The notes below the pieces were generated by a model. It was given only the letters and a program-made list of their open reading frames with translations. It ran no database searches and was not told the DNA's origin. The translations under genes were made by a program, and so were the position numbers. A stretch of DNA of 64,000 bases from Patescibacteria group bacterium (GTDB lineage Bacteria > Patescibacteriota > Minisyncoccia > Phycocordibacterales > SIBU01): positions 22,518-86,517 of the forward strand of contig JBBTUO010000017.1 of NCBI GenBank assembly GCA_038063715.1, read 5' to 3'. Below are positions 6,163 through 57,263 of this stretch, one piece after another. How positions within the stretch are numbered: the first letter of the stretch is position 1; every line of letters begins with the position of its first letter.

Positions 6163-6168
6163 AGACTG

Positions 6169-7923: not shown

Positions 7924-7927
7924 TTAT

Positions 7928-12916: not shown

Positions 12917-12917
12917 T

Positions 12918-14608: not shown

Positions 14609-14615
14609 AGAATCT

Positions 14616-28658: not shown

Positions 28659-28726
28659 AAGGAATACACTAGCACAGATCTGTTCATAAATCATGTAATT
28701 TTCTAAGCTGGTTTTTGGTTATCAGG

Positions 28727-28735
28727 TGGTATACT
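28727..28735 (+). promoter_or_regulatory. Extended -10 promoter element TGGTATACT located 9 nt upstream of the ATG at 28745 (leaderless-type)
   Basis: tggTATACTattacgctcATG has the same geometry as TGGTATAAT-9nt-ATG upstream of the ATPase gene at 59076. Confidence 0.45.
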
Positions 28736-28744
28736 ATTACGCTC

Positions 28745-39859: not shown

Positions 39860-40618
39860 ATGGAAAAAGCAATCTCAAACAAACCCAAAATCACCGCTAT
39901 CTTTATTGCCTACAAAGCAGTAAAAACACTTGAAAGTTTTTATGCCTCGTTCCCGAAGGAATTGGTGGATGAAATTATTCTAGTAGATGACGCATCGGGA
40001 GACGGCACATACGAACTAGCACAAAAACTAGGCATCACATCTTTTGAAAATCCGGTCAACCTCGGATACGGTGGCAACATGAAGAGGGCAATTGAAATTG
40101 CTCTTGAGCGTGGCGCCGACATCATTATTGATATACACCCAGACGGAGAGTACAAACCTTCTGCAATTGCACCCGCCATTCAAAAAGTAAGGGGGGGTGC
40201 GGGACTTGTACTAGGAAACAGATTTACAACCCTAACGGCGCCGCTCAAATCTGGAATGTATTCTTGGAAAATAATTCCAATTGTTGTTCTAAATATTTTT
40301 GACCGATTAGCCTTAGGCATAAAAATTCACGATCTTCATCAGGGCTTTCGTGTCTACACCAAAACACTTCTTGAACAGGTCAACTACACCCAGAACACCA
40401 ACGGTTATCTATTTAGTTTTGAACTCATCGCTCAGGCCGCTTTCAAAAAAATTCCGATAGCAGAAGTACCAGTAGAAACAAATTACCAGGGAGAAAAGCG
40501 CGGAGCTAGTTTAAGGAGTAGCTTAAAATACTCTTTTGCCACATTCAAAGTGTTAGCTCTCTTTTATGGAGCAAAGTTGGGATTAGTATCAGAAATTTTT
40601 AAAAGTCCTAAAAAGTAA
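39860..40618 (+). CDS. GT2 polyprenyl-phosphate hexosyltransferase-like (DPM1/ArnC/GtrB family)
   Basis: ITAIFIAYKAVKTLESF...EIILVDDASGDGTYELA and a DxD/ED region. Its 252 aa size is typical of Dpm1-like enzymes. Confidence 0.78.
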   Translation: MEKAISNKPKITAIFIAYKAVKTLESFYASFPKELVDEIILVDDASGDGTYELAQKLGITSFENPVNLGYGGNMKRAIEIALERGADIIIDIHPDGEYKPSAIAPAIQKVRGGAGLVLGNRFTTLTAPLKSGMYSWKIIPIVVLNIFDRLALGIKIHDLHQGFRVYTKTLLEQVNYTQNTNGYLFSFELIAQAAFKKIPIAEVPVETNYQGEKRGASLRSSLKYSFATFKVLALFYGAKLGLVSEIFKSPKK

Positions 40619-41462: not shown

Positions 41463-42542
41463 GTGCCTAATTTCAACGACAAAACCATTGTGGTATTTGG
41501 CGGTTCCGGCTTTATCGGATCTAATTTTATTCGTTTCATTTTTTCCAAGTACCCAAAAGTTCGCATATTAAATTTTGACAAGCTCACCTATTCTGGGAAC
41601 CTGGATAACAATAAGGACATCGCGAAAAATAAAAAACTGGATTATCACTTCATCAAAGGCGACATTGTCGATAAGAAAAAAATTGACACAGCATTTAAAA
41701 AATTTAAACCTGATTACGTTATAAATTTCGCAGCCGAAACGCACGTGGATCGAAGCATTCACGGAGCATCGCTTGAATTTATTAAAACAAACGTTGAGGG
41801 GGTATTTAACATCGCTGAAGCGGTCAAAGCAAATCCAAAAGTTATAAAATACGTTCAGGTCTCAACTGATGAAGTCCATGGAAGCTTACCTCTAGATTCG
41901 ACTGAGCGATTCCACGAACACACTCTGTTCGCTCCAAATGTCCCCTACGCCGCCACCAAGGCCGGCGGAGATCTACTTTGCCGTGCGTATCATTCAACAT
42001 GGAAAGTGCCTATCGTAGTCACCCACTGTTCAAATAATTATGGCCCGTATCAGTATCCAGAAAAGGTTATTCCCTTTTTCATTACTCGAATGCTAGAAAA
42101 TAAAAAACTTCCGCTATACGGCGATGGCAAACATGTGCGCGACTGGATTTATGTGTTAGATCACTGCCACGCTCTTGAACTCTGCCTCCTACACGGCACA
42201 CCAGGTGGCGTATACCACATCGGCGCAGACAACGAACTTGATAATACGGACATTGCAGGACGAATTTTAAAACATTTCAACCGTGATGAGAGTTGGATAG
42301 AGTATGTAAGCGACAGGCCTGGGCACGACAGACGTTACGCTATTGATTCAAGAAAAATATCAACAGAACTCGGTTGGAAACAAATGTATTCGTTTGAAAA
42401 TGCTTTCCGGGAAACGGTAGAATGGTATATTAATAACCCAGGGTGGATTGATAGGGTAAGGAAACGAACAGGTGTGTTTAATCCACACATAGACCTCTGG
42501 AAAAGTCACGATATTAAAAAATTAAAAACAAAGAAAAAATGA
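41463..42542 (+). CDS. rfbB: dTDP-glucose 4,6-dehydratase
   Basis: IVVFGGSGFIGSNFIRF, YAATKAGGDLL and VSTDEVHG motifs, 359 aa. The start codon is GTG. Confidence 0.9.
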   Translation: MPNFNDKTIVVFGGSGFIGSNFIRFIFSKYPKVRILNFDKLTYSGNLDNNKDIAKNKKLDYHFIKGDIVDKKKIDTAFKKFKPDYVINFAAETHVDRSIHGASLEFIKTNVEGVFNIAEAVKANPKVIKYVQVSTDEVHGSLPLDSTERFHEHTLFAPNVPYAATKAGGDLLCRAYHSTWKVPIVVTHCSNNYGPYQYPEKVIPFFITRMLENKKLPLYGDGKHVRDWIYVLDHCHALELCLLHGTPGGVYHIGADNELDNTDIAGRILKHFNRDESWIEYVSDRPGHDRRYAIDSRKISTELGWKQMYSFENAFRETVEWYINNPGWIDRVRKRTGVFNPHIDLWKSHDIKKLKTKKK

Positions 42543-43261
42543 AAGGAGTAATACTAGCAGGAGGTTTGGGCACTCGCCTTCACCCACTCACCAAAGTTAC
42601 CAACAAACATCTTTTACCGGTCTATGACAAACCTATGATTTTGTACGGTATTGAAACTTTAAAAAAATCAGGTATCACTGAGATCATGATTGTCTGTGGC
42701 CGTGAACATGCTGGGCACTTCATGAATTTCCTAGGCTCTGGTAAGGAATACGGTATCAAATTGTCATACGCACTGCAGGACAAGAATAATGGCGGGATTT
42801 CAGATGCACTTCTTTACGCTGAAGACTTTGCAGACCGAAATAGTATCGCGGTAATTCTAGGAGACAACATATTTGAAAATGATTTTTCAAAGGAGGTGTC
42901 CTCATTCGAAAGTGGCGCAATGATTTTTATAAAAAAAGTAAACGATCCAGAGCGTTTCGGCGTACCAGTATTCGATAAAACCGGTAAAAAACTTATAGAT
43001 ATAGAAGAAAAGCCGAAGAAACCAAAATCAGACTACGCTCAAACAGGTTTTTATATATACGACTTCAATGTTTTTTCTTATATAAAAAAACTAAAACCTT
43101 CTGCGCGCGGTGAGCTTGAAATCACTGATGCCAACAATATGTATCTCAAGCATGGCGAACTAAATTTCTCTTTTGTTTCTGGTTATTGGTTTGACGTTGG
43201 AACAATCGATTCGCTCCTTGAAACGGGGGTTATTCTTTCAAAACAAAAAACAGGGGTGTAA
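42539..43261 (+). CDS. rfbA: Glucose-1-phosphate thymidylyltransferase-like sugar nucleotidyltransferase (short form)
   Basis: MKGVILAGGLGTRLHPLTKVTNKHLLPVYDKPMI. It is coupled to rfbB and rfbD. Confidence 0.78.
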   Translation: MKGVILAGGLGTRLHPLTKVTNKHLLPVYDKPMILYGIETLKKSGITEIMIVCGREHAGHFMNFLGSGKEYGIKLSYALQDKNNGGISDALLYAEDFADRNSIAVILGDNIFENDFSKEVSSFESGAMIFIKKVNDPERFGVPVFDKTGKKLIDIEEKPKKPKSDYAQTGFYIYDFNVFSYIKKLKPSARGELEITDANNMYLKHGELNFSFVSGYWFDVGTIDSLLETGVILSKQKTGV

Positions 43262-43271
43262 CGAATTATAA

Positions 43272-44123
43272 ATGAAAAAAAAATTTCCAAAAACCCTCAT
43301 CACCGGAGCAAATGGAATGGTCGGATCCTACGTTGATTTTGGTATCAAAACTGATAGGCAAACTCTCGACGTGACAAATCTTGAGAGTGTCATGAGTGTC
43401 GTTAAAAAACACAATCCAAAAGTGATTCTTCACCTAGCCGCCATGACCGATTTGGATCTCCTAGAAAAGAATCCCTCGCTCGCCTATTTCGTAAATTCAG
43501 TTGGTACATACAATATCGCACTAGCAGCGCGAAGCATTGGCGCAAAAGTAGTGTTTCCCTCTTCAACCGGAGTTTTTGATGGAACTAAAAAAAGTCCCTA
43601 CACGGAAAATGACGTACCTAACCCTCAAAACCATTACGGCCATTCAAAATATATTGGCGAACAAATTATCAGAAGCATGCTCGATAACTATATTATCGCC
43701 CGATCATGCTGGATGTTTGGAGGTGGGCCTAAAAATGATAAAAAGTTTGTGGCAAAAATAATTGCCCAATTAACACGAAATGAGGTCACAGAAATAAAGG
43801 CTTTGGACGACGTAAAAGGTTCCCCCACTTTTGGTAAAGATTTGGTCGCCGCCTATAAGGCCCTAATAGAAAAAGATGCTCGAGGAATTTTCCATCTTAC
43901 AAACAAGGGTGTATGCACACGTTTTGATGTAGCTAAGGTTATTGTAGAAACACTAAAACCATCTCTAAAAATTCGGGCGGTTGACTCGACATATTTTAAT
44001 TTGCCAGCGGTACGCGTCAAGAACGAAGCATCATCTTCGCAGGTACAGCTATTACGTCCATGGAAGGATGCTCTTAAAGAATACCTTGAGGTAGAATGGA
44101 GTCACCTAAAACTGAAAAAATAA
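43272..44123 (+). CDS. rfbD: dTDP-4-dehydrorhamnose reductase-like (RmlD family)
   Basis: LITGANGMVGSYV N-terminus, YGHSKYIGE catalytic motif, 283 aa. Confidence 0.72.
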   Translation: MKKKFPKTLITGANGMVGSYVDFGIKTDRQTLDVTNLESVMSVVKKHNPKVILHLAAMTDLDLLEKNPSLAYFVNSVGTYNIALAARSIGAKVVFPSSTGVFDGTKKSPYTENDVPNPQNHYGHSKYIGEQIIRSMLDNYIIARSCWMFGGGPKNDKKFVAKIIAQLTRNEVTEIKALDDVKGSPTFGKDLVAAYKALIEKDARGIFHLTNKGVCTRFDVAKVIVETLKPSLKIRAVDSTYFNLPAVRVKNEASSSQVQLLRPWKDALKEYLEVEWSHLKLKK

Positions 44124-44148
44124 TAGATATAATCGATAAAATTCACGA

Positions 44149-45381
44149 ATGAGTCGCGATTATAAAATAAAAAAAAGTTGTCGAATCTGTGGAAATACTA
44201 AATTTCTGAAGGTCTTAGACTTGGGCAAAAGCCCCCTAGCCAACGCCTTTTTATCGGCCAATGAACTGGAAAAGTCAGAGGCATATTTCCCCTTAGCTGT
44301 TTACTTCTGTCAAAAATGCACCCTTGTCAGTCTTAGACATATCGTCGAGCCAAGTCTACTTTTCAAAAACTACCACTATCTCACTAGTGCAAGCACACCC
44401 CTTTCATTACATTTTAAAAAACTGGCGTGGGAAGTTGGTACAAGATACATAAAATCAAAAAATGACCTGGTCGTTGAAATCGGAAGCAACGATGGTAGCC
44501 TACTCTCAAACTTAAAAAACCGTTGTCGCGTGCTTGGTATTGACCCCGCTGACAATGTAACAGAGATAGCTAAAAAAAATGGAGTGGAAACAGTTACGGC
44601 CTTCTTTAGTGAAAAAACCGCTGAGGCAGTGGTGCAGAAATATGGCAGAGCGAAGGTCGTACTGGCAAACAATGTAATTGCCCATATTGATGATCTCCAT
44701 AGCGTATTTGGTGGAATAAAAAAACTTCTATCTCCTGACGGTGTTTTTATATTTGAAGCTCACTGGGTTGGAAACTTAATCACCGATGGTGGGTTTGATC
44801 AGGTTTATCATGAGCATTTATCCTACTTTTCACTCCATGCAATAGAATACATAGTACAAGAATTTGGTATGACAATATTTGACGCGACACTTGTACCGAT
44901 TCATGGAGAATCTCTTAGAATTTCGGTCGGAAACTCTGGTAAGGCTTCAAAAAATGTCCGGTCCTTACGCCAAAAGGAAAAAATAATGAAGCTTGATAAA
45001 TACAGCACATTCAAAGATTTTGCTAAAAAAGTTGAGCGAAACAAAAATAAACTTAATACACTTTTACGTAAATTAAAAAAACAAGGTAACAAAATCATAG
45101 GCTACGGCGCACCCGCAAAGGGAAATACCCTTTTAAACTATTATAAAATAACACCGAAAATTTTAAATTTTATTACAGACACCACCCCACTTAAACAGGG
45201 ACTTTTTACTCCTGGCACGCACATTCTAATACTATCGCCTGATGTTCTTAAAACGGAGAAGCCTGATTATATTTTGCTTCTGTCCTGGAATTACAGTATA
45301 GAGATACTAAAAAAAGAAAGTACTCTAAGAAAGGAAGGGGTAAAATTTATTATTCCCGTACCAGATGTAAAGATCGTCTAA
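44149..45381 (+). CDS. NDP-hexose C-methyltransferase family protein (N-terminal Zn-binding Methyltransf_13 plus C-methyltransferase C-terminal domain architecture)
   Basis: CRICGNTKF...CQKCTLVSL cysteine pairs, then a class I MTase core (VVEIGSNDGSLL) and a long C-terminal domain. This resembles TylCIII/NovU-type sugar C-methyltransferases. Confidence 0.65.
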   Translation: MSRDYKIKKSCRICGNTKFLKVLDLGKSPLANAFLSANELEKSEAYFPLAVYFCQKCTLVSLRHIVEPSLLFKNYHYLTSASTPLSLHFKKLAWEVGTRYIKSKNDLVVEIGSNDGSLLSNLKNRCRVLGIDPADNVTEIAKKNGVETVTAFFSEKTAEAVVQKYGRAKVVLANNVIAHIDDLHSVFGGIKKLLSPDGVFIFEAHWVGNLITDGGFDQVYHEHLSYFSLHAIEYIVQEFGMTIFDATLVPIHGESLRISVGNSGKASKNVRSLRQKEKIMKLDKYSTFKDFAKKVERNKNKLNTLLRKLKKQGNKIIGYGAPAKGNTLLNYYKITPKILNFITDTTPLKQGLFTPGTHILILSPDVLKTEKPDYILLLSWNYSIEILKKESTLRKEGVKFIIPVPDVKIV

Positions 45382-46181
45382 GACCTCCATACTAATTTCC
45401 AAAATTTTCGGCAAATGTTTAAGTGATATACATGTCGTTCCCATTCAAGTGCCCACGGCATTTTTTTGCCCCTGCAAAAAAATAAATTACGTACATATCG
45501 AAAAATATACAAAGCGGAAATTTTGAAGTTTTCTGCGCAGACCGCCAACCAACCGAAAAATGAAATCGTCCCGCGACGTTCTACCTCAAGCTCTATATAA
45601 TGCGCCCATTTTCTTCGATGGAATGAAGGGTCAGGGTTTGTAGGAACCAACATAAAATTTATGATATTGAAAATTGGATAACCCTGCTTTACGTCAATCC
45701 GCTCGTGAATGGTTTTAATAAAACCATTCACAGCATCACGATGAAAAAATCTCATTTGCTTTGTGGGATAGGTCGCAGCACAATCAACAACTTCTCCAGA
45801 TAGAACATACCTTCTTGGCACCCAAAAAACGGCCGCCGGATGACCAGTGGAAATAATAGATTTAATCTCTCGCTCCAAAACTGGTGTCACAAGCTCATCG
45901 GAATCTAAGGAAAAAAACCATTGGTAACTAGCGAGAGACAGCATTTGATTTCTCACGCCAGAAAAATCAATGATTCGATTGCCTTCCCCTTTAAACTCTG
46001 GCGCCTGGACAATCACCTTCGCGCCAAAAGCGCGCGCTAAAGATAGCGTGTCATCCGTCGATCCTCCATCGCACACGATGATTTCAGCAAAATTTTTTAC
46101 AGAATCAAGGGCGGATTTGAGAGTAGCACCGTTATTAAAAGTAAGTATCCCGACACTGCACTGAATTTTATGATCATTCAT
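45378..46181 (-). CDS. GT2 family glycosyltransferase
   Basis: CSVGILTFNNGATLKSALDSVKNFAEIIVCDGGSTDDT. I chose the start at MNDHK. Confidence 0.75.
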   Translation of the reverse strand: MNDHKIQCSVGILTFNNGATLKSALDSVKNFAEIIVCDGGSTDDTLSLARAFGAKVIVQAPEFKGEGNRIIDFSGVRNQMLSLASYQWFFSLDSDELVTPVLEREIKSIISTGHPAAVFWVPRRYVLSGEVVDCAATYPTKQMRFFHRDAVNGFIKTIHERIDVKQGYPIFNIINFMLVPTNPDPSFHRRKWAHYIELEVERRGTISFFGWLAVCAENFKISALYIFRYVRNLFFCRGKKMPWALEWERHVYHLNICRKFWKLVWRS

Positions 46182-47250
46182 GTTTTTCAAACGCTTCAAT
46201 TGTGACAATAATCTTACCAACAAAATTTTTTAAGCTATGATCATTCACGACAATATCCCTAAGTGACTGACCTAACTCGATACGCTTATTTTCCGGCATT
46301 TGGATCATATCCTTAATTTTAACTGAAAGTGCCTGAAAATCCCCCTTAGGGTACATTAAATCGGCCTTAAAAGGGCCTAAAACCTCTTTAAACGCCTCGT
46401 TACAGGTCAAAACCGGTAAACCCGAGGCCATAGCCTCTGGAACCGCCTTATCGAGGCTTCCAGTTTGACCCATATTCACAAAAAGATCGTAGTCCGAAAG
46501 AACATCAGGAAGCTCCGTATTAGGCACCGGACCCAGAAAATTGATGACGGAAACCAGGTCTTTTTTAGCAACACTGTCTTTCAAACTCTCTAGATATTTT
46601 CTATCCGAATCGACAGATGTTGGACCGATAATGTCTACTTTAATTTTTAATTTAGAATCTTTGCAAACAACATCCATCGCTTCGATTAATGTCTCATAAT
46701 CCTTAGACGGCGAAATCCTACCCACGGACACAATTCGAAATTCTTCTCCATTACTTCTGAATCTTGAATCTTGAATCTTGAATCTACTTGTATCGATCCC
46801 CTGCCCAACCACCTTAACCTTTGAGCTCGGAAGTCGAAACCCGCTAGTTGTAGAAGTAAAGACAATATCCGTTAAAAAATGTGCGGCACGAAGATGCCAC
46901 GGAGTGCTTTTGTGCGCGTACCACAAGGTCACTGTTTTTCCCCACAATTTCCAAAACAAACCCCCGAGGACGATATACTCCGGATTCATATGTACAAAGA
47001 CGGCATCGTATTCACGGCGTGTTCGCCAAATGATTTTATAGAAATTGAAAATCCGAGCAACTCTTGATGCCCCGTGTTCTTTACCTAATGAAAAAACGCC
47101 AACATTGTCCGGGAGATGTGCCTCCCCTTTACCGAGACACACTGCGACCACCGATTGTGCCTGTCGAGAGAACTCAACAATCCAGCCATGCATAAAACCG
47201 AGAACTGCATCATTATCGTCAATCTTCTGGGTTATAATTAAAAGTCGCAT
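46174..47250 (-). CDS. GT4 (group 1) glycosyltransferase containing an internal heptanucleotide tandem repeat
   Basis: GT-B pattern with an E-x7-E-like C-terminal block (DKAVPEAMASGLPVL). Confidence 0.75.
   Translation of the reverse strand: MRLLIITQKIDDNDAVLGFMHGWIVEFSRQAQSVVAVCLGKGEAHLPDNVGVFSLGKEHGASRVARIFNFYKIIWRTRREYDAVFVHMNPEYIVLGGLFWKLWGKTVTLWYAHKSTPWHLRAAHFLTDIVFTSTTSGFRLPSSKVKVVGQGIDTSRFKIQDSRFRSNGEEFRIVSVGRISPSKDYETLIEAMDVVCKDSKLKIKVDIIGPTSVDSDRKYLESLKDSVAKKDLVSVINFLGPVPNTELPDVLSDYDLFVNMGQTGSLDKAVPEAMASGLPVLTCNEAFKEVLGPFKADLMYPKGDFQALSVKIKDMIQMPENKRIELGQSLRDIVVNDHSLKNFVGKIIVTIEAFEKHE
46758..46785. repeat. Perfect tandem repeat (TGAATCT)x4, 28 bp, inside the GT4 coding sequence
   Basis: Read directly: ctgaatcttgaatcttgaatcttgaatctac. 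The 7-nt unit is not a multiple of 3. Confidence 0.9.
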
Positions 47251-47303: not shown

Positions 47304-48668
47304 CTAGGTGCCGTAAGCAGCAAACAGAAAGAGAAACGGCGCAGAAGGAAGCCTGAAACGCGAATACGCCAATGGGCCAGTCAAAACAGCGAAGTAGAAA
47401 ATTAGCACAACAAAGAGTATGGCGTAGACGTGATACTTTCTGCCAGAAAATACAGCACCAACAAATGCGAGCGAGGATATCAAAAGCCAAAATAACTGCT
47501 CAAGCGTGACCACAGGTTGAATCTGAAGTTCTGACCAAAACTCTTTAAAACGAGCGCCTGCCAGTAAATTGGTCATATTACCTCCGTTAATTTTATAGGC
47601 TTCATAGCCCAAGGCGTTATTATAAAAAATCAGAGAATTTTTAATCTGGCTCGACAGAAAAAACGGCACCATCTTAATCAAATGGAACTTTGCGTACCCC
47701 CAAAAATCCTCCCGGATGTAACGAAAAGCGATTTTTTCCTCAGCGGGCGCGTACTCCAAGGAACCTATATCAATAGTTTCAGATGATGAGACACCGACAT
47801 CTCGTCTTAATTCCTCCATCAAAATATTTCTTCCTTCGTCGGCAGAAATTCCTCGAGTATATGACAAAAACTCTGGTACATAATACTGGAAGACATTCAA
47901 AGATTTCTCGTTGGCAATTCCCCAAACACCTGACACAGCATTGTTCCGAGCAACCCAAGGTACAACAACCGCGCTATAAGCAATAGTTAGTATAAAGAGG
48001 TTTATAATTATTTTCTTGGTTGAAATACGATTATTTTTAATTAAAAAATACAAGGGAATAATTACAATAGGCAAAAACATGGAAATAACCCGGGTGAGCA
48101 TAGCTACTCCGAAAAATATGCCGGCGAAAAAAGTTCGAACCGGTGCGCCTTCCTCAGTACCTTCAGCATCAAAAAAAAGCAGATAGACAGATAAAACAAG
48201 CAGAAAAACATATGGTATATCCGTCATAATGATAAGAGAGTGAAAAATTGTTGTCGGATCAAGAATAAATAAAAGCGCCGCGATTACTCCCGCTGAATAA
48301 GAAAAAACTCGCTCCCCTATTTTAAAAATTAAAAAACTAGTAGCACCAGCGAGTACCAGCTGCACCAAAGGAAACAGAGTATATGAACCGAACGTACCAA
48401 TAAAAATTGCCAAAAAAAGAGGGTACGCAGGCATAATAAAAGTCGCCGGCACAAACGGCGCCTGGACACTACCGGAAAAAACTCCGTGATGGAGAATGTT
48501 CCCCGCCAAGGTTACATAATATAAGCCATCTCCGTAGACCGGAAAAACTGACGGGAAATTTAGTAGGTATAACATCATAGGCACATAAACCAAAAAAATA
48601 ATGGCCGCAACAAACCAGCCAATATTTGCTTTCCAAGTTGTTATTCTGCGAAAAAATGTTTGAATCAT
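47304..48668 (-). CDS. GT-C fold membrane glycosyltransferase (ArnT/PMT_2-like)
   Basis: 454 aa, highly hydrophobic with about 11 TM segments. It is adjacent to a polyprenyl-P-sugar synthase, a GtrA-like protein and UDP-sugar enzymes. Confidence 0.55.
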   Translation of the reverse strand: MIQTFFRRITTWKANIGWFVAAIIFLVYVPMMLYLLNFPSVFPVYGDGLYYVTLAGNILHHGVFSGSVQAPFVPATFIMPAYPLFLAIFIGTFGSYTLFPLVQLVLAGATSFLIFKIGERVFSYSAGVIAALLFILDPTTIFHSLIIMTDIPYVFLLVLSVYLLFFDAEGTEEGAPVRTFFAGIFFGVAMLTRVISMFLPIVIIPLYFLIKNNRISTKKIIINLFILTIAYSAVVVPWVARNNAVSGVWGIANEKSLNVFQYYVPEFLSYTRGISADEGRNILMEELRRDVGVSSSETIDIGSLEYAPAEEKIAFRYIREDFWGYAKFHLIKMVPFFLSSQIKNSLIFYNNALGYEAYKINGGNMTNLLAGARFKEFWSELQIQPVVTLEQLFWLLISSLAFVGAVFSGRKYHVYAILFVVLIFYFAVLTGPLAYSRFRLPSAPFLFLFAAYGT

Positions 48669-48740
48669 CTGCTTTGTTTTATGGAGTCGACTGTGTTATA
48701 TTTCCTGAATTGCCATTATACCATTCTACGTTCATTATTT

Positions 48741-49697
48741 ATGCATTCCAAAAGAATTCTAATAACAGGCGGCGCGGGTTTTATCGGTTCACATCTGATA
48801 CCAAAACTGCTTAAAAACAAAAATACAGTTTTTGTACTGGATGATCTTTCGACTGGCAGTCTCGCCAACCTAGAACCGTTTAGGAAAAACCCAAAATTCA
48901 TCTTCAAAAAGGGCTCTGTTCTCAATCGAAAAGATTTGCGACCTCTCGTAGCGAAGGTTGATTACATTTACCACCTCGCAGCCTCGGTCGGCGTCAAATA
49001 CGTCGTAGAAAAACCGCTCTATTCGATGGTTAACAATACTGAGGGCACGGCAATGGTCCTAAAACTGGCATGCGAGAAAAAAGTCCCCGTACTTATCACT
49101 TCCACTTCAGAAGTTTATGGCAAACTCGACGCTACCCCGTTCAAGGAAACCTCTGACAGAATGTACGGCTCGGCCTACAACGAACGCTGGGGCTACGCCC
49201 TCTCAAAAGCGGTGGATGAATTTGTTGCTCTGGCATATTGGAGAGAGAAAAAATTACCGGTTGTGATCGTGCGACTGTTCAACACCGTAGGCCCAGGGCA
49301 AAGCGAAAAATTTGGTATGGTCATACCCCGACTGATTAAACAGGCGATGAGTGGTGAGCCCATGACGGTCTATGGTGACGGCAAACAAGTACGTTGTTTT
49401 GGCCACGTCGACGATGTAACCGATGCACTGATCAAACTTCTATCATTAAAAAAAGTATACGGTGAAATAGTCAATCTTGGTTCCAACCGACCCACAACAA
49501 TTAACATGCTGGCAAAAACGATCAAAAAAATTACAGGATCCTCATCCAAAATTGTACACATACCATACGAAAAAGTGTATTCTAAAACCTTCGAGGATAT
49601 GCGTAAGCGAATACCGGATCTTACCAAGGCATGGAACCTTATCGGCTATAAGCCACGCTACACGCTCGAACAAATCATGAGATCAATTTTAGAATAG
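48741..49697 (+). CDS. UDP-glucuronate decarboxylase-like NAD-dependent epimerase/dehydratase (UXS/ArnA C-terminal-like)
   Basis: ILITGGAGFIGSHL, TSTSEVYG and YALSKAVDE motifs. I chose the start at MHSKR (48741). Confidence 0.72.
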   Translation: MHSKRILITGGAGFIGSHLIPKLLKNKNTVFVLDDLSTGSLANLEPFRKNPKFIFKKGSVLNRKDLRPLVAKVDYIYHLAASVGVKYVVEKPLYSMVNNTEGTAMVLKLACEKKVPVLITSTSEVYGKLDATPFKETSDRMYGSAYNERWGYALSKAVDEFVALAYWREKKLPVVIVRLFNTVGPGQSEKFGMVIPRLIKQAMSGEPMTVYGDGKQVRCFGHVDDVTDALIKLLSLKKVYGEIVNLGSNRPTTINMLAKTIKKITGSSSKIVHIPYEKVYSKTFEDMRKRIPDLTKAWNLIGYKPRYTLEQIMRSILE

Positions 49698-49698
49698 A

Positions 49699-50409
49699 AT
49701 GATTTTATCAATACTCATTCCGGTATATAACGAGGAAAAATTCTTGGAATTACTCCTCCATGAAGTTTTTGACACGCCATTTCAAAAAGAAGTTATTATT
49801 ATCAATGACGGCTCGCGAGATGGAACAAAAAACGTTTTAGAAAAAATCGAAAGAGATTTTCAAAAAAACCCCGTACCACATGTAGAACGGCTTCGTGTCA
49901 TACACAAAGAAAAAAATGCCGGCAAGGGCGCAGCCATCATTACGGGTGTTAAAGAAGCGACGGGTGATATAATTGTCATCCAAGATGCCGACCTGGAACT
50001 CTCACCAAAGGAGTACGCCAAATTGCTGGAACCGTTCGAAAAATATGAGGCGGATATCGTGTTTGGCTCCCGATTTCAAATGGCGGGCACTCGACGAGTT
50101 TTCACTACAACCAAATATCTGGCAAACCGCCTCTTGACTATTGCATCCAATATATTTAGTGGCATTTATTTGACCGACATGGAAACTTGCTACAAACTTT
50201 TCAAACGTGAGGTTATTCAATCGTTTGATCTCCGCTCCAATCGATTCGGTATAGAACCAGAACTTACTGCTAAGGCGGCAAAGGGTAAATATAAAATTTA
50301 TGAGGTGCCTATAACTTACAATCCACGCTCACACAGCGAGGGTAAAAAAATCGGATGGAAAGATGGCTTGGAGGCATTAGCTGCGATTGTAAAATATAAT
50401 TTATGGTAA
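49699..50409 (+). CDS. GT2 polyprenyl-phosphate glycosyltransferase (ArnC/DPM1/GtrB-like)
   Basis: LSILIPVYNEEKFLELLL...IIINDGSRDGT...IQDADLE, 236 aa. Confidence 0.8.
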   Translation: MILSILIPVYNEEKFLELLLHEVFDTPFQKEVIIINDGSRDGTKNVLEKIERDFQKNPVPHVERLRVIHKEKNAGKGAAIITGVKEATGDIIVIQDADLELSPKEYAKLLEPFEKYEADIVFGSRFQMAGTRRVFTTTKYLANRLLTIASNIFSGIYLTDMETCYKLFKREVIQSFDLRSNRFGIEPELTAKAAKGKYKIYEVPITYNPRSHSEGKKIGWKDGLEALAAIVKYNLW

Positions 50410-50802
50410 CTTTTTGAAAATAAGATACTTGTAAACAAAAAAACTTTCACACGCGATGATAACACCGGCGACGATTTGGGCCAAAAGATAGTGAAAACCA
50501 GCGTATGTTACAAACAGATATATAGACAGGGTGTTTAAACCCAAATTTACAATACCCGCTACAAGATATGCACTCGCCTGAATATGGATATTCTCCGTTG
50601 ATTTATCAGTGAACGTCCAAAATTTTTGAAATACGAAGCTGACAATAAATCCGGCTGCAAAAGCGACGATACCCGAGGTAATATACCAAACGCCGAATAT
50701 ATCCGTAAAAAGATACAATAACCCTAAATTAACGATTGCGGCAGTCCCGCCTGATATAAGATATTTTATAACCTTCCAAGATTTGCCGAAAAGTACTTCC
50801 AT
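50401..50802 (-). CDS. GtrA-family small membrane protein (putative lipid-linked sugar translocase component)
   Basis: 133 aa with 4 TM helices and the YLISGGTAAIVNLGLLYLF pattern typical of GtrA. Confidence 0.72.
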   Translation of the reverse strand: MEVLFGKSWKVIKYLISGGTAAIVNLGLLYLFTDIFGVWYITSGIVAFAAGFIVSFVFQKFWTFTDKSTENIHIQASAYLVAGIVNLGLNTLSIYLFVTYAGFHYLLAQIVAGVIIACESFFVYKYLIFKKLP

Positions 50803-51707
50803 TATTTTTTGCGACGTTTTAATAGAGATGCCCCGTAGACGCCCTTAAGCAAATCCGCATCTTTCCCCGTTTCAAGCAACAAATCAATATTTTTATCGCG
50901 AATGCTTTCAAGTACCGTAATACCCTGAACATCGCCGACAGTACTACGATACATCTCATCGAATGCTGCGAAATCTTTAATGAAGCAGTGTCCGCCAGCT
51001 CCTCGTCCGCTTTTATGCACCGGGTCAAGATGCGACCGGCCAATTCTAGGGTCAGCGGCCATAGCATCCCTAACGATATTCCAATCAATTGCTTTTGCCT
51101 TAGCCATGTCATACAACATGTTTATAAAAATCACCTTGAAATAGAACCAACAGTTTCCACCGTACTTGATAAGCTCTGCCTCCTCTGCTCCTGTTACAAG
51201 CTCAAAAGGAGCCTTGGGCAGTACTGCCAACACTTTTTTTGCCCTATCTGTATATTTTTTAGTAGACTCCGGTATTCCAAGAATATTTCTAGTGGGATTA
51301 GCGGCGTCCCAAAATGCGCTTACTTCAGTCAAAAACTCCGGCGAGTGAAAAACAAAAATATCCGGATTTTCTTTCTGAATTGAAGCGGTGGTTCCGGGCA
51401 AAATGGTTGACTTTATAACCGCGGTCTTACCATTGCCCACCAATTTGATTGCTCCACGAATGATACTGTCATCAAAACCTTTTTCGGTGGTTGGAGTCGG
51501 CACTGCAATAAACACAATGTCACACTCTTTGATTTTATCCTTATTCTGACGATATGGCTCTTCGAGAGAATACCGAACAGTATTGAAACCACGGCGCTCA
51601 AATTCATCTGCATAGGCCTTGCCCACGAACCCTTGACCGATAAACCCCACCAGGGGCTTGGCTTTCTTTGTTGTTGTAGCTTGGCGTGCAGGTTTTTTCA
51701 TTTTCAT
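50802..51707 (-). CDS. Nucleotide-sugar dehydrogenase (UDP-glucose 6-dehydrogenase-like), short form lacking the C-terminal UDP-binding domain
   Basis: VGFIGQGFVGKAYA NAD-binding Rossmann segment, IKSTILPGTT, SPEFLTEVSAF and GGHCFIKD (catalytic Cys) motifs. The protein ends after about 300 aa. Confidence 0.65.
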   Translation of the reverse strand: MKMKKPARQATTTKKAKPLVGFIGQGFVGKAYADEFERRGFNTVRYSLEEPYRQNKDKIKECDIVFIAVPTPTTEKGFDDSIIRGAIKLVGNGKTAVIKSTILPGTTASIQKENPDIFVFHSPEFLTEVSAFWDAANPTRNILGIPESTKKYTDRAKKVLAVLPKAPFELVTGAEEAELIKYGGNCWFYFKVIFINMLYDMAKAKAIDWNIVRDAMAADPRIGRSHLDPVHKSGRGAGGHCFIKDFAAFDEMYRSTVGDVQGITVLESIRDKNIDLLLETGKDADLLKGVYGASLLKRRKK

Positions 51708-51714
51708 AATTTGG

Positions 51715-52881
51715 CTATTCTACAGGAAAAATCTGCCCAAGGAAAGCTTGTTGAGCACCCTCGATAGAGGCCTTGTACAGAGCAAGATAAGTCAATTTTT
51801 CCTGAACAAAAGGCGCAACCGCCCCTGGAGCAATTTGAGTACTAAAAAAAAGACGCAGCTGATTGTTCTCAATCAGTCCTGAAATTGTTTTGGTAAAACA
51901 ATCCAGATCATTTACTGGACACACAAAAGAATGTCCTTTGTGATTCAACAGTTCTGGCGCAATACCAACATCTGAGGAAACCGCTGGCAAACCAGCAGCC
52001 ACTGCCTCGAGAAGCGCGATTCCAAAACCCTCATACAAAGATGTTTGCAAAAAAATATTAGCGGTTTTGTAATACGACACAACATCACCCTGCCAATTTT
52101 CAAACACAACATGTTTTGACAAGCCGGATAGCCAAACCCTCCACATGAGATTTCTCTTCAGTGGTCCATCCCCCACCACCACAAGACCAATTTTTGGATA
52201 CACCACAACAAGTTTTTTGAAAACACTGAGAGCGAAAACAATATTTTTTTCGTCAGACAGCCTTCCCACCATGAGTAGGATAAAATTCCACTGAGGGTAT
52301 TTTTGTTTCAAATCAAAAGACGGCGTCATAGCAGAAATATTCGAGATATCAGAAAAAATAGGCAAAACGGTGACGGCAGCTTTTAGCTTTAAGCTGCTAG
52401 CTGTTAGTGAGGACCTAACACGCTCAGATACCACACGGATACCATTGACCCTAGGCAATACAATTCGAGCAACAATGACCCGGATTCGATTAAGAATAGA
52501 ACTCGAAGCAAAATAAGAACTTAGAAAATCGGTGTGAATTTGAATATGCAGTGGAATTTTAAACCGATTCGAAATTTTTGACGCAACAAAACCGCATTCA
52601 AAAGGATCCTGAGCGTCAACGACCCAGTCCCCACCCCCGCGAAGAATTGACTTACCGATACGCAAAGCTCCCAAAACATACGACCAACGACTGATTGAGT
52701 TAGTCGCGTATGCAAAACAGTTAGGCGCCAACTGCAATTTGGCACCTACCGAGTGACTCCTTTTTGAAAACACAATGATGTGCAATTCCTCAAAAAGACC
52801 AGCATACTCAATCATTCTGAGTTGAACAGAACTCCCCTCTTTAAAAATATTTCTGTCTGTACTTATAGATATTACTTTCAT
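51715..52881 (-). CDS. GT4 (group 1) glycosyltransferase
   Basis: GT-B pattern with a C-terminal EGFGIALLEAVAAGLPAV E-x7-E block. Confidence 0.75.
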   Translation of the reverse strand: MKVISISTDRNIFKEGSSVQLRMIEYAGLFEELHIIVFSKRSHSVGAKLQLAPNCFAYATNSISRWSYVLGALRIGKSILRGGGDWVVDAQDPFECGFVASKISNRFKIPLHIQIHTDFLSSYFASSSILNRIRVIVARIVLPRVNGIRVVSERVRSSLTASSLKLKAAVTVLPIFSDISNISAMTPSFDLKQKYPQWNFILLMVGRLSDEKNIVFALSVFKKLVVVYPKIGLVVVGDGPLKRNLMWRVWLSGLSKHVVFENWQGDVVSYYKTANIFLQTSLYEGFGIALLEAVAAGLPAVSSDVGIAPELLNHKGHSFVCPVNDLDCFTKTISGLIENNQLRLFFSTQIAPGAVAPFVQEKLTYLALYKASIEGAQQAFLGQIFPVE

Positions 52882-53882
52882 ACTTTTTGTGCTATTGCCA
52901 AAAACTCCTCAGCAATATCTTCCCATGTATGCGTAAAATTGAAAATTTCAACATTTTTTTTCTGTTCAGCATAATTAAGTGGATCCGAAAGCCATTGTAT
53001 TTTCTCCGCAATCTCCTGCACATTTTCTGGATCGACAAAAATCGCACATGGCTTAATTCTTTCGTATAGACCGGTCTCTTTGGTCACAATAAACGGCTTG
53101 TTATGACGAATAGCGTCGAGGATCAGATTCGGACTAATATCACCTAATGAAACAAGTATAACGGCGTACGCAGATGCAACCCTTTCCATAAAAACATCAA
53201 ATGGTTTCGTAGCATTGTCATAGACCAAAGATTCGTCTTTCTCAGCCACCAATGAAAACGCCTCTCCGAGCCGAGCGTCATTTTTCCATTTCAGTGGACG
53301 AGTACCAGCAATAAAATTCTTCTTTTCAGGTGTCGACGACGCTTCTTTTAAACCGTAATAATTCTCAACGATGAAAAGCTTTGACAAATTCAGTCCGTAC
53401 GCTGGTACAAAAATATCTCTCTGCCATGACGTGCTAAAAATAACCGCTGAAGAATGCCTAAGCACAAAGCCTGTTAGACAAAAAATAATCCTTTCCTTCA
53501 AGGACAATTTTCCAGGTGCGGCAGTATAAAAATTTTTAAACAAAACCAAATCCCCTGTCCGCTCAACATACGACTCCCATAAAAAATCTCCTCCGGTTCT
53601 TACAATAAATTTCTTTCTAAAAATTTTTGCAGCCAATAGCGCCGGCAAAGCACAACTGAAGGTGTCGAAGGCGAACACAACCTCTGATCGCCACACCGCC
53701 TGAATAATCCGAAAAAAATACCATAAATGACGTAAACCGCTCGGCAATCTTCTCTCAAATCGGAAAAATTTTACTGAAACCTTGTGCTCCAGTTTTCTAA
53801 AAACTTCTTCTAAGTTTTTCGCATACTGAGCTGGACCACCAATATCTGGCGGGTATATTCCTGTGGCAATTAAAATTCGCAT
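52878..53882 (-). CDS. GT-B group 1-like glycosyltransferase
   Basis: MRILIATGIYPPDIGGPAQYA N-terminus typical of GT4. Its stop overlaps the start of the neighbouring gene. Confidence 0.65.
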   Translation of the reverse strand: MRILIATGIYPPDIGGPAQYAKNLEEVFRKLEHKVSVKFFRFERRLPSGLRHLWYFFRIIQAVWRSEVVFAFDTFSCALPALLAAKIFRKKFIVRTGGDFLWESYVERTGDLVLFKNFYTAAPGKLSLKERIIFCLTGFVLRHSSAVIFSTSWQRDIFVPAYGLNLSKLFIVENYYGLKEASSTPEKKNFIAGTRPLKWKNDARLGEAFSLVAEKDESLVYDNATKPFDVFMERVASAYAVILVSLGDISPNLILDAIRHNKPFIVTKETGLYERIKPCAIFVDPENVQEIAEKIQWLSDPLNYAEQKKNVEIFNFTHTWEDIAEEFLAIAQKV

Positions 53883-55817: not shown

Positions 55818-57263
55818 CTAATCTTCAATAATCTTAAAATCGTCTGCTGAGTTTTTGGGTATAGCTGGAGCGGCTGGTTTAGGTAAAAAAGTAAAACCAA
55901 GTCCGAGAATAATAATACCCACAACACCGTACAACCATGGCGATAAAAAAGAAGATTGGTTTTCCTGATCAGCCAGCCCACCATCTTCACCGTTGACGGC
56001 GGCTTCTGCAACAGAAGCCGTCTGCAAAAAAGACCTAGAATCGCTTACACCTGGATAAATTACCGCAGGTGAAGCTTCCATCGGCTCTACCGAAACTTCA
56101 GAAATTTTAGGCGCCTCAACAACCTTAACATGATCCGCTACAGCATATGCCACTGATCCGTTAGGGTACAAAAGAGCGACATCCTGGTTATTGTTAATGC
56201 TTAAACCGGTTACTAATGCAGAAAGTGGCAATCGACTATTAGCCAAAATTTTCGTATTTTTGGGTAACGTAAAAAACTGATTACCGCTCCGAATCCTCCA
56301 CCAAGATAAATCTAGCTCTTGGTTCGAATTATTCACCAGATCCATCTTTCCCTCAGAACCATGCACAATAGCGTCAATTGAAAGATCGGCCGGAATAATC
56401 TTAATGCTTAAACGGCTTGTAGCACTGTACCTTCCCCCAGACGCGTCTAGTATAACCACGTACTCTCCTGGAAAATTATAACCGTGCAAAACTGACTCCC
56501 CTTCCTTGGTTGAGCCATCTCCAAAATTCCAAAGATAACGAGCATTTGCAAGTGGCTCTTTTTCAATGCCAATAGCTTCTCCACGCAATAAAATATCGGC
56601 GCCGCTGATAGCCGTCATTGGACCAATAATCCTCGAAAAAATTTGCGGCTCAACGGGCCAGCTTGAATTATTGCTCGTTGATGAGTCCTCATCCGCGTCA
56701 CCGCTACTGGTTGTCGTAGCCGATGATGAACTCGAACTTGAGGCTACCGCAGTATTTGCGTTGGCGGCTCCAGGTGTCGGCATAAGCGCTTTCCAAACAC
56801 CTGAAACAAGCTGAAGTGAATTACCATCACCTGTTGCTCCGACCGATGAGGCATACGTCACCGAATCTGCTGTTGTTGTAGTACTGGTTTTAATAGAAAT
56901 GACTTCTCCGGTATTGCTCAAGGAAAATGCGCTCTCGAAAATTGTCCCTGAAAATCCGGGCCAATCAACAATAAATTTGGTGGAATCATCTACAATCACC
57001 GCAAAACCACCAGCAGGAATAATTACATCTCCCTGAAAGAGTGTTAAAGAGTGATTTGTGTTAGCTTCAAAAAATTTCCAGGTAGATGTAGAAACCGTCA
57101 CCGCCGCCCCACTGGCATTAGTAATCTCAATCCATTCGCGTCCAGTATCAGTACCGGGCACATCGTACATAATCTCATTAATAACCACCTGCGCTGAAAC
57201 ACCATGGCAGAAGAAAAAACTGGCAAGAATAAGTAACCAAGTATTATTTTTGAGAATGCGCAT
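55818..57263 (-). CDS. Secreted lamin-tail-domain (LTD) protein with a Ser/Thr-rich linker and a C-terminal TM anchor
   Basis: A signal-peptide-like MRILKNNTWLLILASFFFCHGVSA is followed by the VVINEIMYDVPGTDTGREWIEITN LTD hallmark. The region ...SSSSSSSATTTSSGDADEDSS... is low complexity. A C-terminal hydrophobic helix is present. I chose the start at 57263. Confidence 0.62.
   Translation of the reverse strand: MRILKNNTWLLILASFFFCHGVSAQVVINEIMYDVPGTDTGREWIEITNASGAAVTVSTSTWKFFEANTNHSLTLFQGDVIIPAGGFAVIVDDSTKFIVDWPGFSGTIFESAFSLSNTGEVISIKTSTTTTADSVTYASSVGATGDGNSLQLVSGVWKALMPTPGAANANTAVASSSSSSSATTTSSGDADEDSSTSNNSSWPVEPQIFSRIIGPMTAISGADILLRGEAIGIEKEPLANARYLWNFGDGSTKEGESVLHGYNFPGEYVVILDASGGRYSATSRLSIKIIPADLSIDAIVHGSEGKMDLVNNSNQELDLSWWRIRSGNQFFTLPKNTKILANSRLPLSALVTGLSINNNQDVALLYPNGSVAYAVADHVKVVEAPKISEVSVEPMEASPAVIYPGVSDSRSFLQTASVAEAAVNGEDGGLADQENQSSFLSPWLYGVVGIIILGLGFTFLPKPAAPAIPKNSADDFKIIED

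Follow-up and report, generated by a model that had tools for sequence, protein, structure and literature searches.

A predicted Gtr/Arn-type module for lipid-linked pentose decoration, with a naturally short UDP-glucose dehydrogenase-like enzyme, in a Patescibacteria surface-glycan locus

The Gtr systems, represented by GtrA/GtrB/GtrC in O-antigen glucosylation of Shigella and Salmonella and by the CsbB/GtcA/YfhO-type teichoic-acid systems, consist of a polyprenyl-phosphate glycosyltransferase of family GT2, a four-helix GtrA protein, and a GT-C membrane glycosyltransferase that are encoded in clusters (PMC11127046, PMC8035078, PMC7389260). Here we describe a module with the same three components in a 64-kb stretch of a Patescibacteria contig (JBBTUO010000017.1, assembly GCA_038063715.1; hereafter, the window), where they are clustered with genes for a sugar-nucleotide decarboxylase of the short-chain dehydrogenase/reductase (SDR) superfamily and for a short protein related to UDP-glucose dehydrogenase (UGDH). 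The GT2, GtrA, and GT-C proteins very likely form a lipid-linked glycosylation system. With moderate confidence, the module as a whole is interpreted as a Gtr/Arn-type three-component system for extracytoplasmic glycosylation within a large surface-glycan locus, in which the full chain leads from the dehydrogenase through UDP-uronic acid and UDP-pentose to a lipid carrier and then to a surface glycan.

This reconstruction starts from what was observed directly: which domains and catalytic motifs the proteins carry, that the dehydrogenase is naturally truncated, and how the genes are linked and fused across genomes. The predicted pathway, with its proposed substrates, sugar, lipid carrier, topology, and acceptor, would include the following steps: (i) the short dehydrogenase oxidizes a UDP-hexose, most likely UDP-glucose, to a UDP-uronic acid, (ii) a share of the UDP-uronic acid pool is used by the adjacent family 4 glycosyltransferase (GT4), (iii) another share is decarboxylated by the SDR to a UDP-pentose, most likely UDP-xylose because no aminotransferase is encoded nearby, or else to a 4-keto-pentose, (iv) the soluble GT2, which resembles dolichyl-phosphate mannose synthase (DPMS), and the four-helix GtrA protein load the pentose onto polyprenyl phosphate at the membrane, and (v) after translocation, the GT-C protein transfers the pentose to a surface acceptor, most likely as a side branch of the glycopolymer built by the neighboring GT4 and GT2 enzymes.

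Another feature shared with the Gtr systems is the presence of variable "serotype-like" GT2/GT-C cassettes beside a conserved glycan locus. Unlike in the Gtr systems, the GT2 protein of the module has no membrane helices, the decarboxylase is co-transcribed, and the host is a Patescibacterium. Since the decarboxylase gene is co-transcribed with the GT2 gene, the donor is expected to carry a pentose rather than the glucose or N-acetylglucosamine of the Gtr systems. The host belongs to the Parcubacteria, is Taylorbacteria-like, and comes from groundwater; the nearest named homologs of the dehydrogenase are from Candidatus Taylorbacteria and from the "Patescibacteria group". Lipopolysaccharide (LPS) is generally regarded as absent from Patescibacteria, and no lpx genes were found in the window. 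As lipid A is probably missing in the host, the Gtr-type scheme suits the system better than Arn does.

The Arn pathway (PmrHFIJKLM/Ugd) and the module share the logic of a UDP-glucose dehydrogenase, a UDP-glucuronic acid (UDP-GlcA) decarboxylase, a polyprenyl-phosphate GT2, flipping, and a GT-C transferase of the PMT_2/ArnT type. The formyltransferase domain of ArnA, ArnB, ArnD, and ArnE/F are features of the Arn pathway only, and the module has GtrA instead. The SDR (318 aa) lacks an N-terminal extension, and Pfam scans of 57 open reading frames (ORFs) of the window detected neither an ArnA formyltransferase half nor ArnD, in agreement with a preliminary description of the locus made from the sequence alone. 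The same scans detected no PF01522 domain and no EamA/SMR-type protein in the window, and no ArnB-type DegT aminotransferase near the module. The two systems differ further in that the dehydrogenase of the module lacks the UDP-binding domain, the SDR is closer to UDP-xylose synthase (UXS), and lipid A is an unlikely acceptor in this lineage. The module falls outside the Arn pathway.

In the Rhizobium RgtE/RgtA-D,F system, as predicted for the module, a sugar derived from a uronic acid is linked to polyprenyl phosphate, and an ArnT-like GT-C then uses this donor on the extracytoplasmic side; RgtE is a precedent for a lipid-linked uronic acid; the Rgt donor is bactoprenyl-phosphate galacturonic acid, the acceptor is the LPS core/lipid A, and the precursor is provided by a canonical UGDH and an epimerase, with no decarboxylation (PMC7663294). 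Rgt is thus a possible analog of the UXS-less cassettes found in some relatives of the module, such as locus L095 (see below). The PPPRS/MATE/GT136 systems for pentofuranose also produce an extracytoplasmic pentose side branch from a polyprenyl-phosphate donor via a GT-C; however, they obtain the donor from phosphoribosyl pyrophosphate by a phosphoribosyltransferase and use a MATE flippase, whereas the module would combine a decarboxylase-derived UDP-pentose with GT2 and GtrA (PMC11127046).

The five genes listed in the preliminary description were recovered at the same coordinates and with the same domains by ORF listing and Pfam (Table 1). The Pfam E-values of the five ORFs range from about 1e-11 to 1e-57, so the domain matches are not due to chance. 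The genes are indeed clustered, but the proposed five-gene module is not a single operon, as it comprises three transcription units on two strands: (i) a long minus-strand operon ...GT4-HAD-GT4-GT4-dehydrogenase-GtrA that ends at 50401, (ii) a plus-strand SDR-GT2 pair with 1 nt between the genes, whose 3' end overlaps the 3' end of the GtrA gene by 9 bp, and (iii) a minus-strand unit GT-C-GT4-GT2 that diverges from the SDR gene and is continued after GT-C by the GT4 (46174-47250) and GT2 (45378-46223) genes. The SDR ORF has an alternative start at 48660. The divergent spacer contains promoter-like hexamers on both strands; in a promoter and terminator scan of 45-53 kb the counts equaled the shuffled expectation. 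No matches were obtained in tRNA and Rfam scans of the window.

Table 1. Coordinates of the predicted features of the module, followed by those of other features of the window
Feature	Position	Strand	Basis
GT-C (PMT_2, GT39/GT83-like, 454 aa), predicted extracytoplasmic transferase	47304..48668	-	Pfam, AF2 model
Divergent intergenic spacer, 72 bp, presumed promoter region	48669..48740		read from sequence
UXS/ArnA-type extended SDR, 318 aa, predicted UDP-uronic acid decarboxylase	48741..49697	+	motifs, Pfam, PDB matches
Soluble GT2, 236 aa, predicted polyprenyl-phosphate glycosyltransferase	49699..50409	+	Pfam, NCBIfam, PDB matches
GtrA-family four-helix membrane protein, 133 aa	50401..50802	-	Pfam, hydrophobic segments
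Short UGDH-like dehydrogenase, 301 aa, predicted NAD-dependent sugar 6-dehydrogenase	50802..51707	-	Pfam, motifs, AF2 model
GT4, 388 aa, immediately upstream of dehydrogenase	51715..52881	-	Glycos_transf_1 4.7e-32
GT4-like protein, 334 aa, same minus-strand operon as dehydrogenase	52878..53882	-	weak GT4 Pfam matches
Wzy_C/TPR	1459-3747		window Pfam
GDP-mannose dehydratase and fucose synthase	5047-7101		window Pfam
Wzm/Wzt ABC exporter	7105-9202		window Pfam
Split transketolase	9213-10867		window Pfam
NeuB and cytidylyltransferase	13928-15497		window Pfam
FdtA and DegT	19822-21347		window Pfam
Two carbamoyltransferases	22393-24258, 33025-34770		window Pfam
HAD/nucleotidyltransferase/GHMP kinase set	27446-29725		window Pfam
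GT10 and GT11 fucosyltransferase-like genes	within 1-41000		window Pfam

The GT2 protein matches Glycos_transf_2 (2e-34) and contains a DAD motif. Its full-length NCBIfam matches are exclusively polyprenyl-phosphate transferases, AglJ (107 bits), PpgS, ArnC, and dolichyl-phosphate hexose transferase, all under the equivalog cut-offs. The best solved relative is DPMS from P. furiosus (5mlz, 73 bits), followed by GtrB (5ekp) and ArnC (9hwj). Thus, the previously proposed ArnC-like polyprenyl-phosphate GT2 does group with polyprenyl-phosphate enzymes in both NCBIfam and PDB, although its score with the ArnC profile is 55 bits, where the cut-off is 529, and it lacks the membrane helices of ArnC. 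The GtrA assignment was likewise confirmed by a match to GtrA_DPMS_TM (PF04138, 1e-22), a Pfam family that unites GtrA proteins with the membrane domain of DPMS. GtrA has approximately four hydrophobic segments and GT2 has none; because Pfam joins GtrA with the DPMS membrane domain, the two proteins may be the separate halves of a DPMS-like enzyme, whether in addition to a flippase role for GtrA or in place of it. The P. furiosus enzyme (5MLZ) has a four-helix membrane domain that Pfam places in one family with GtrA; in the module, two genes on opposite strands encode the catalytic and the membrane part, and a different donor sugar is predicted. GtrA, whose gene is translationally coupled to that of the dehydrogenase, could serve as a flippase or as the membrane partner of GT-C and the soluble GT2.

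The GT-C protein matches PMT_2 (2.7e-11) and PMT (4.6e-6). Since a sequence search against PDB gave no match at E<=1, a structure model was needed; the AF2 model (pLDDT 91.5) has ArnT (5f15, E 5.7e-5, TMq 0.42), AglB, and STT3 as its top Foldseek matches in PDB, in line with the GT-C membrane enzyme proposed earlier. The acidic residue that is conserved in the first external loop of such GT-C transferases is represented by D47, which does not vary among 21 homologs; nor do W238, R241, N242, and R439. The window ORF ends at a TAG codon (47304-47306); the near-identical copy in locus L007 has TCG at this position and is 17 codons longer (471 aa). The two copies thus differ at the strain level, and the window protein is shortened in its C-terminal tail only. 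Fusions of GtrA with GT-C exist in other genomes (P0280, P0283) and occupy the syntenic position in L095 and L096.

The genomic context was surveyed in 80 species-level loci containing the short dehydrogenase, in which ORFs were called and the neighbors were classified by phmmer and motifs. The genes GT4-GT4-GT4-dehydrogenase-GtrA and the downstream GT4-GT2 pair are constant in the relatives of the window, whereas the set between them varies: SDR, GT2, and GT-C in the window, L010, and L013; GT2, an AsnB-like amidotransferase, and GT-C in L011 (contig of P0006); GT-C and a GT2-methyltransferase fusion in L001, L009, and L014; and a GtrA-GT-C fusion with GT2 in L095 and L096. The GT4-like protein of the dehydrogenase operon (52878..53882) has syntenic counterparts in L001, L009, L013, L095, and numerous type-A loci. 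The dehydrogenase retains 70-79% identity to the window protein throughout the syntenic relatives. Identity of GT2 (75-78%) and GT-C (56-64%) is high only in the SDR-containing loci and does not exceed 47% and 49%, respectively, elsewhere, which rules out that the GT2 proteins of the UXS-less relatives are the same ortholog. Since GT2 and GT-C follow the SDR in this way and the dehydrogenase stays constant, the UXS, GT2, and GT-C genes appear to be a swappable cassette beside the conserved dehydrogenase-GtrA pair. In the window, L010, L013, L091, and L095, the GT2, GtrA, and GT-C genes lie in one cluster, and the three vary together across genomes. The decarboxylase, the amidotransferase, and the methyltransferase could all act on the carboxylate of a uronic acid, and such alternative enzymes are consistent with a uronic acid from the dehydrogenase feeding the lipid-linked branch. 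The exchange of decoration cassettes suggests surface variation comparable to serotype conversion.

Some of the records with this Parcubacteria-type locus (L021, L028, L030, L032, and others) are third-party metagenome-assembled genomes (MAGs) titled "uncultured Gammaproteobacteria" or "Candidatus Saccharibacteria", which are probably taxonomic mislabels.

The SDR matches the Pfam families Epimerase (2e-51) and GDP_Man_Dehyd (1e-56). It contains the motif GGAGFIGS and the catalytic set of UXS and ArnA, with (S/T)-x-E, YxxxK, and a conserved Arg (TSTSEVYG, Y..SK as YALSK, and GKQVR), which is conserved in its subfamily; its best solved relative is human UXS1 (165-170 bits), followed by other functional classes at 129 bits or less, with ArnA at about 85 bits. 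The UXS/ArnA-C-like decarboxylase named in the preliminary description is thus well founded. The NCBI label "GDP-mannose 4,6-dehydratase" was rejected for this protein, as the 49 PDB matches at E<=1e-20 are led by UXS and include no GDP-mannose dehydratase, and the NCBIfam gmd profile scores 37 bits. The subfamily is large and is 36% identical to a canonical UXS. Its members most likely decarboxylate UDP-GlcA to a 4-keto-pentose. For the window enzyme xylose is the favored product, because no aminotransferase is encoded near the module; the only DegT gene of the window (20241-21347) is paired with FdtA 27 kb away, and Pfam scans revealed no formyl- or acyltransferase and no deacetylase near the module either. 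The GT2 gene comes directly after the SDR gene in the window, L010, L013, and L091; in L091, a member of the SDR subfamily is encoded directly upstream of a GT2 and a PMT_2 GT-C in an operon, and these partners are only 28% and 25% identical to those of the window.

Two groups of related SDR genes were observed in other contexts. UXS-like SDRs of 497-536 aa with a C-terminal extension of about 200 aa (...KKI.VF.TTYYPD.GPAE...) occur in L030, L052, L057, L061, L063, and L084 (e.g., 11929-13515), and several of them have SSD in place of TSE in the catalytic motif. Arn-like sets in L092 (4260-9714) and L093 (5072-9919) combine an epimerase, a decarboxylase of the window type, a PF01522 deacetylase, an Acetyltransf_6 protein, and a DegT aminotransferase, which suggests synthesis of a 4-amino-pentose. 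The short dehydrogenase precedes the epimerase only in L092, a metagenomic contig with a gene order like that of the Patescibacteria type-B loci, and not in L093, an Aminicenantia MAG.

The most interesting element of the locus is the short dehydrogenase. The UGDH family (Ugd, TuaD, AglM, human UGDH) is characterized by the domains PF03721, PF00984, and PF03720. The short form has the Rossmann NAD domain UDPG_MGDP_dh_N (PF03721, 9.5e-16) and the central dimerization/catalytic domain (PF00984, 1.5e-15), and PF03720, the C-terminal UDP-binding domain, was not detected by Pfam; its TIGR03026 score is 131 bits, under the cut-off of 189.8. The TAA stop codon of the dehydrogenase and the ATG of GtrA share one base (TAATG), and therefore there is no coding space for the C-terminal domain. 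No ORF of at least 60 aa in the window carries the signature of this domain by regular expression and phmmer, and the same search for a separate C-domain gene in the 80 related loci found only the complete canonical UGDH of L084. The best 120 homologs are 271-336 aa long, and all of them contain PF03721 and PF00984 only. A profile-free search at E<1e-30 grouped the family into 161 clusters at the 50% identity level, nearly all with proteins of 260-310 aa. GTDB holds no fewer than 482 species genomes that encode a relative, the best 80 of them without exception from Patescibacteria. Thus, the lack of the UDP-binding domain that had been noted at the outset is confirmed by Pfam, by the overlapping stop codon, and by the homologs of the same length.

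The short form retains the catalytic features of the UGDH family, namely the catalytic Cys in GGxCxxKD, the Lys-x3-Asn motif, and PEFLxE. In an alignment of 27 members that are 60-78% identical to the query, the NAD-binding GxGxxG (GQGFVG), PEFL.E, K181-x3-N185, and R221 are invariant, as are the catalytic C241 and D245 within HKSGRGAGGHCFIKD and the C-terminal tail KD.DLL.GVYG. The AF2 model (pLDDT 85) fits, at TMq 0.7-0.75, the N-terminal and central domains of UGDHs, the human and streptococcal enzymes among them. Besides the loss of the C-terminal domain, the short form differs from the UGDH family by having about 30 fewer residues in the N-terminal domain (query residue 56 corresponds to position 71 of the PF03721 profile) and by its own invariant HKSGRGAGGHC loop and KD.DLL.GVYG tail. 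The short form is therefore a conserved and presumably active enzyme, and it belongs to a large, uncharacterized family that naturally lacks the domain normally holding the nucleotide sugar. No literature was found on a short UGDH, or on UGDH in Patescibacteria or the candidate phyla radiation.

About half of the short dehydrogenases have an insert of about 30 aa that duplicates PVHKSG (alignment columns 233-263, query residues 227/228); it sits just ahead of the catalytic Cys loop.

The most constant partner of the short dehydrogenase is the adjacent GT4, a likely consumer of its product. A homolog of this GT4 is encoded within 300 bp of the dehydrogenase in 51 of the 80 loci and is fused to it in three (L056, L062, and L080), with fusions occurring in both orders; over 310 aa, the window protein shares 36% identity with the GT4 portion of the fusion P0122. 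An SDR of any type is found within 2 kb in 33 loci, a WbpP-like 4-epimerase within 1.5 kb in 23, and an SDR with UXS motifs within 10 kb in 15. The epimerase, whose best PDB match is 1sb8 (188 bits) and which is WbpP/WbgU-like, is fused to the dehydrogenase in 4/80. GtrA domains are encoded within 10 kb in 32 loci, and a standalone GtrA gene adjoins the dehydrogenase in 15/80. Compared with the window-type operon GT4-GT4-GT4-dehydrogenase-GtrA, the L005 operon has the order dehydrogenase-NUDIX-epimerase-canonical UXS-GT4-GtrA::GT4, where the last gene is a fusion, and the L092 operon encodes the short dehydrogenase, the epimerase, an SDR of the window subfamily, a PF01522 deacetylase, an acyltransferase, and a DegT aminotransferase. 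Since the fusions and operons involve enzymes that act only on nucleotide sugars, the product is likely to be a nucleotide uronic acid. UDP-glucose is favored as the substrate by the closer match to UGDHs, as PDB entries of UDP-glucose dehydrogenases score 47-67 bits and those of UDP-N-acetylhexosamine (UDP-HexNAc) dehydrogenases 23-32 bits; UDP-GlcA would be the most likely product.

Additional genes were observed around the short dehydrogenase in subsets of the loci. A NUDIX hydrolase is encoded between or beside the short dehydrogenase and the epimerase in some type-B operons (L005, L016, L017, L061, and L065), and unusual fusions (P0137, P0125, P0195, P0196) join the dehydrogenase to a polytopic membrane domain (about 370 aa, no Pfam match), a D-Ala-D-Ala ligase, an APS kinase, and a GT2.

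The proposed chain from UDP-glucose to a lipid-linked pentose has to be weighed against several contrary observations. The missing domain supplies most of the UDP contacts in canonical UGDH, and the commonest SDR partner is WbpP-like, i.e., of the UDP-HexNAc epimerase type, so that a UDP-HexNAc substrate is possible. In L084 (8611-10870), one operon encodes a canonical UGDH of 463 aa (TIGR03026, 250 bits) and, after a gap of just 4 nt, the short dehydrogenase; the genes that come next are those of an epimerase, a UXS fusion, GT4, a small GT2, and a GtrA::GT4 fusion. This is the only such tandem among the 80 loci, and the presence of both forms in one operon suggests that they are not redundant. 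No canonical UGDH was found in the window by Pfam scans of 57 ORFs or by a signature scan that covered every ORF of 60 aa or more; the genome is represented here by this one 64-kb stretch, and a canonical enzyme may be encoded elsewhere in it. The dehydrogenase is not specifically tied to UXS, because the syntenic loci L001, L009, and L095 keep dehydrogenase, GtrA, GT-C, and GT2 without a UXS gene. The SDR and GT2 scores stay under all NCBIfam equivalog cut-offs, and SDR homologs with 55-58% identity are encoded directly upstream of DegT aminotransferases in L092-L094. Finally, the searchable literature yielded no report of a polyprenyl-, undecaprenyl-, or dolichyl-phosphate-xylose donor, and no paper that combines UXS with undecaprenyl and GT-C.

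The association with DegT genes bears on the identity of the pentose. Because these distant members precede aminotransferases, the SDR subfamily may release a 4-keto-pentose rather than xylose, and we see a modest chance that, with the same architecture, the window SDR releases UDP-4-keto-pentose and the lipid-linked sugar is a 4-keto or modified pentose of the L-arabinose or 4-amino type. The accompanying PF01522 deacetylase and acyltransferase genes in L092, L093, and L094 fit such a product, as does the NCBIfam match to the bifunctional UDP-4-keto-pentose/UDP-xylose synthase (PRK11908), at 130 bits under the cut-off of 294. The SDR motifs RWxYxxxK and GKQ.RCF resemble those of ArnA and apiose/xylose synthase more than those of canonical UXS. 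On the other hand, similarity to human UXS1 is twice that to ArnA, and in the window, L010, L013, and L091 the SDR is followed by GT2 rather than by enzymes for modification of a 4-keto sugar, none of which are encoded near the module. UDP-xylose therefore remains the favored product for the window.

The loss of the UDP-binding domain bears on how the substrate may be held. It is rather doubtful, though conceivable, that the short dehydrogenases constitute a new class of the UGDH superfamily without classical binding of a free UDP-sugar, which would act on a hexose that GT4 or a lipid carrier holds or has just transferred, or would bind the nucleotide through a new interface with the dimer mate or a partner. 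Candidates for such an interface would be the HKSGRGAGGHC loop, the KD.DLL.GVYG tail, and the UDP-binding Rossmann domain of GT4. If true, a glycosylation complex at the membrane would be the place where uronic acids, and from them the pentoses, are produced.

In a stricter version, which we regard as improbable, the enzyme oxidizes C6 of a hexose that is already attached to the lipid or glycan or is held by GT4, and uronic acids arise at the membrane. This would explain the family-wide loss of the nucleotide-binding domain with invariant catalytic residues, and it fits the tight linkage to GT4 with fusions in both orders, the fusions to GT2 (P0196) and to the polytopic membrane domain (P0137), the translational coupling to GtrA, and the coexistence with a canonical UGDH in L084. 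However, four independent fusions with SDR 4-epimerases and the recurrent operons with UXS-type genes connect the family to nucleotide-sugar enzymes. R221, which we take to be the equivalent of the diphosphate-binding Arg contributed by the partner subunit in UGDH, is invariant, and we know of no precedent in the UGDH family for oxidation of a hexose that is not bound to a nucleotide.

A similarly low probability is assigned to a UDP-HexNAc 6-dehydrogenase (cf. TviB, WbpO, and the B. cereus UGlcNAcDH), in which case the SDR would decarboxylate UDP-GlcNAcA and the cargo would be N-acetylxylosamine or a related 2-acetamido pentose. The known conversion of UDP-GlcNAc to UDP-XylNAc by a 6-dehydrogenase and UXNAcS via UDP-GlcNAcA provides a precedent for this alternative chemistry (PMC5078965). 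The WbpP/WbgU-like 4-epimerase as the commonest neighbor and fusion partner and the canonical UGDH beside the short form in L084 are compatible with it, whereas the much higher scores against UDP-glucose dehydrogenases than against UDP-ManNAc, UDP-GalNAc, and Cap5O dehydrogenases in PDB and NCBIfam, as well as the canonical UXS genes that follow the short dehydrogenase in type-B operons, argue for UDP-glucose.

With respect to the acceptor, GT-C could also be a PMT-like protein O-glycosyltransferase that decorates a surface protein rather than a glycopolymer, for instance the LTD-PKD protein (55818-57332) encoded beside the cluster in L001, L009, and L095 as well. The Pfam matches to PMT and PMT_2 agree with this version, to which we give little credence: the module lies among approximately eight GT4/GT2 genes of the kind that usually assemble polymers, PMTs rank behind ArnT and oligosaccharyltransferases as structural matches, and GT-C has no Pfam match to the MIR domain. 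A luminal MIR domain is a feature of eukaryotic PMTs.

The explanation of the dehydrogenase as a pseudogene, or as an artifact of assembly or of a frameshift, for which its length of 301 aa compared with about 390-490 aa in canonical enzymes is the sole argument, has a negligible probability and was discarded, given the shared stop/start base at 50802, the absence of a C-domain signature in any frame of the window, hundreds of homologs of the same length with 60-79% identity and invariant catalytic residues, and identical 301-aa proteins with the same neighbors in a contig of GCA_964356825.1 (L007) and a separate Hainich groundwater assembly (L008). Thus, the stop codon is real and the truncation is family-wide. 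With the domain assignments all correct, the truncation not caused by a frameshift, and GT2 grouped with polyprenyl-phosphate enzymes, the Arn-like lipid-linked pentose interpretation of the preliminary description is supported.

Patescibacteria represent a large share of bacterial diversity, and their surface glycans, which probably mediate host attachment, are almost unstudied experimentally. The locus provides a concrete predicted pathway for extracytoplasmic pentose decoration in this group. The short dehydrogenase, widespread and tightly conserved without the textbook UDP-holding domain, challenges the current picture of substrate binding in the UGDH family and offers a minimal scaffold for the study and engineering of sugar 6-oxidation. 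Current database labels of these proteins are "hypothetical" or "UDP-glucose 6-dehydrogenase", and "GDP-mannose 4,6-dehydratase" for the SDR; one characterized member would correct thousands of annotations.

By gene content, the whole window is a glycan-biosynthesis island (Table 1). A second PMT_2 GT-C of 482 aa (38224-39672, minus strand) is encoded beside a divergent GT2 of 252 aa (39860-40618, plus strand), and because of this second pair, two lipid-linked systems may share the single GtrA protein; L091 likewise has three GT-Cs, three GT2s, and one GtrA. The plus-strand region 41463-45381 contains RmlB-, RmlA-, and RmlD-like genes followed by a TylC3-type sugar C-methyltransferase (Methyltransf_13/14), with no RmlC seen. 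This set, which is syntenic in L001, L007, and L009, points to a branched-chain 6-deoxy sugar. The minus-strand region 55818-59076, next to the GT4-dehydrogenase operon on its upstream side, encodes the LTD-PKD surface protein and a VirB4/TraG-like ATPase (DUF87, T4SS-DNA_transf), both conserved in L001, L009, and L095; the LTD-PKD protein is possibly a surface structure or a target of glycosylation.

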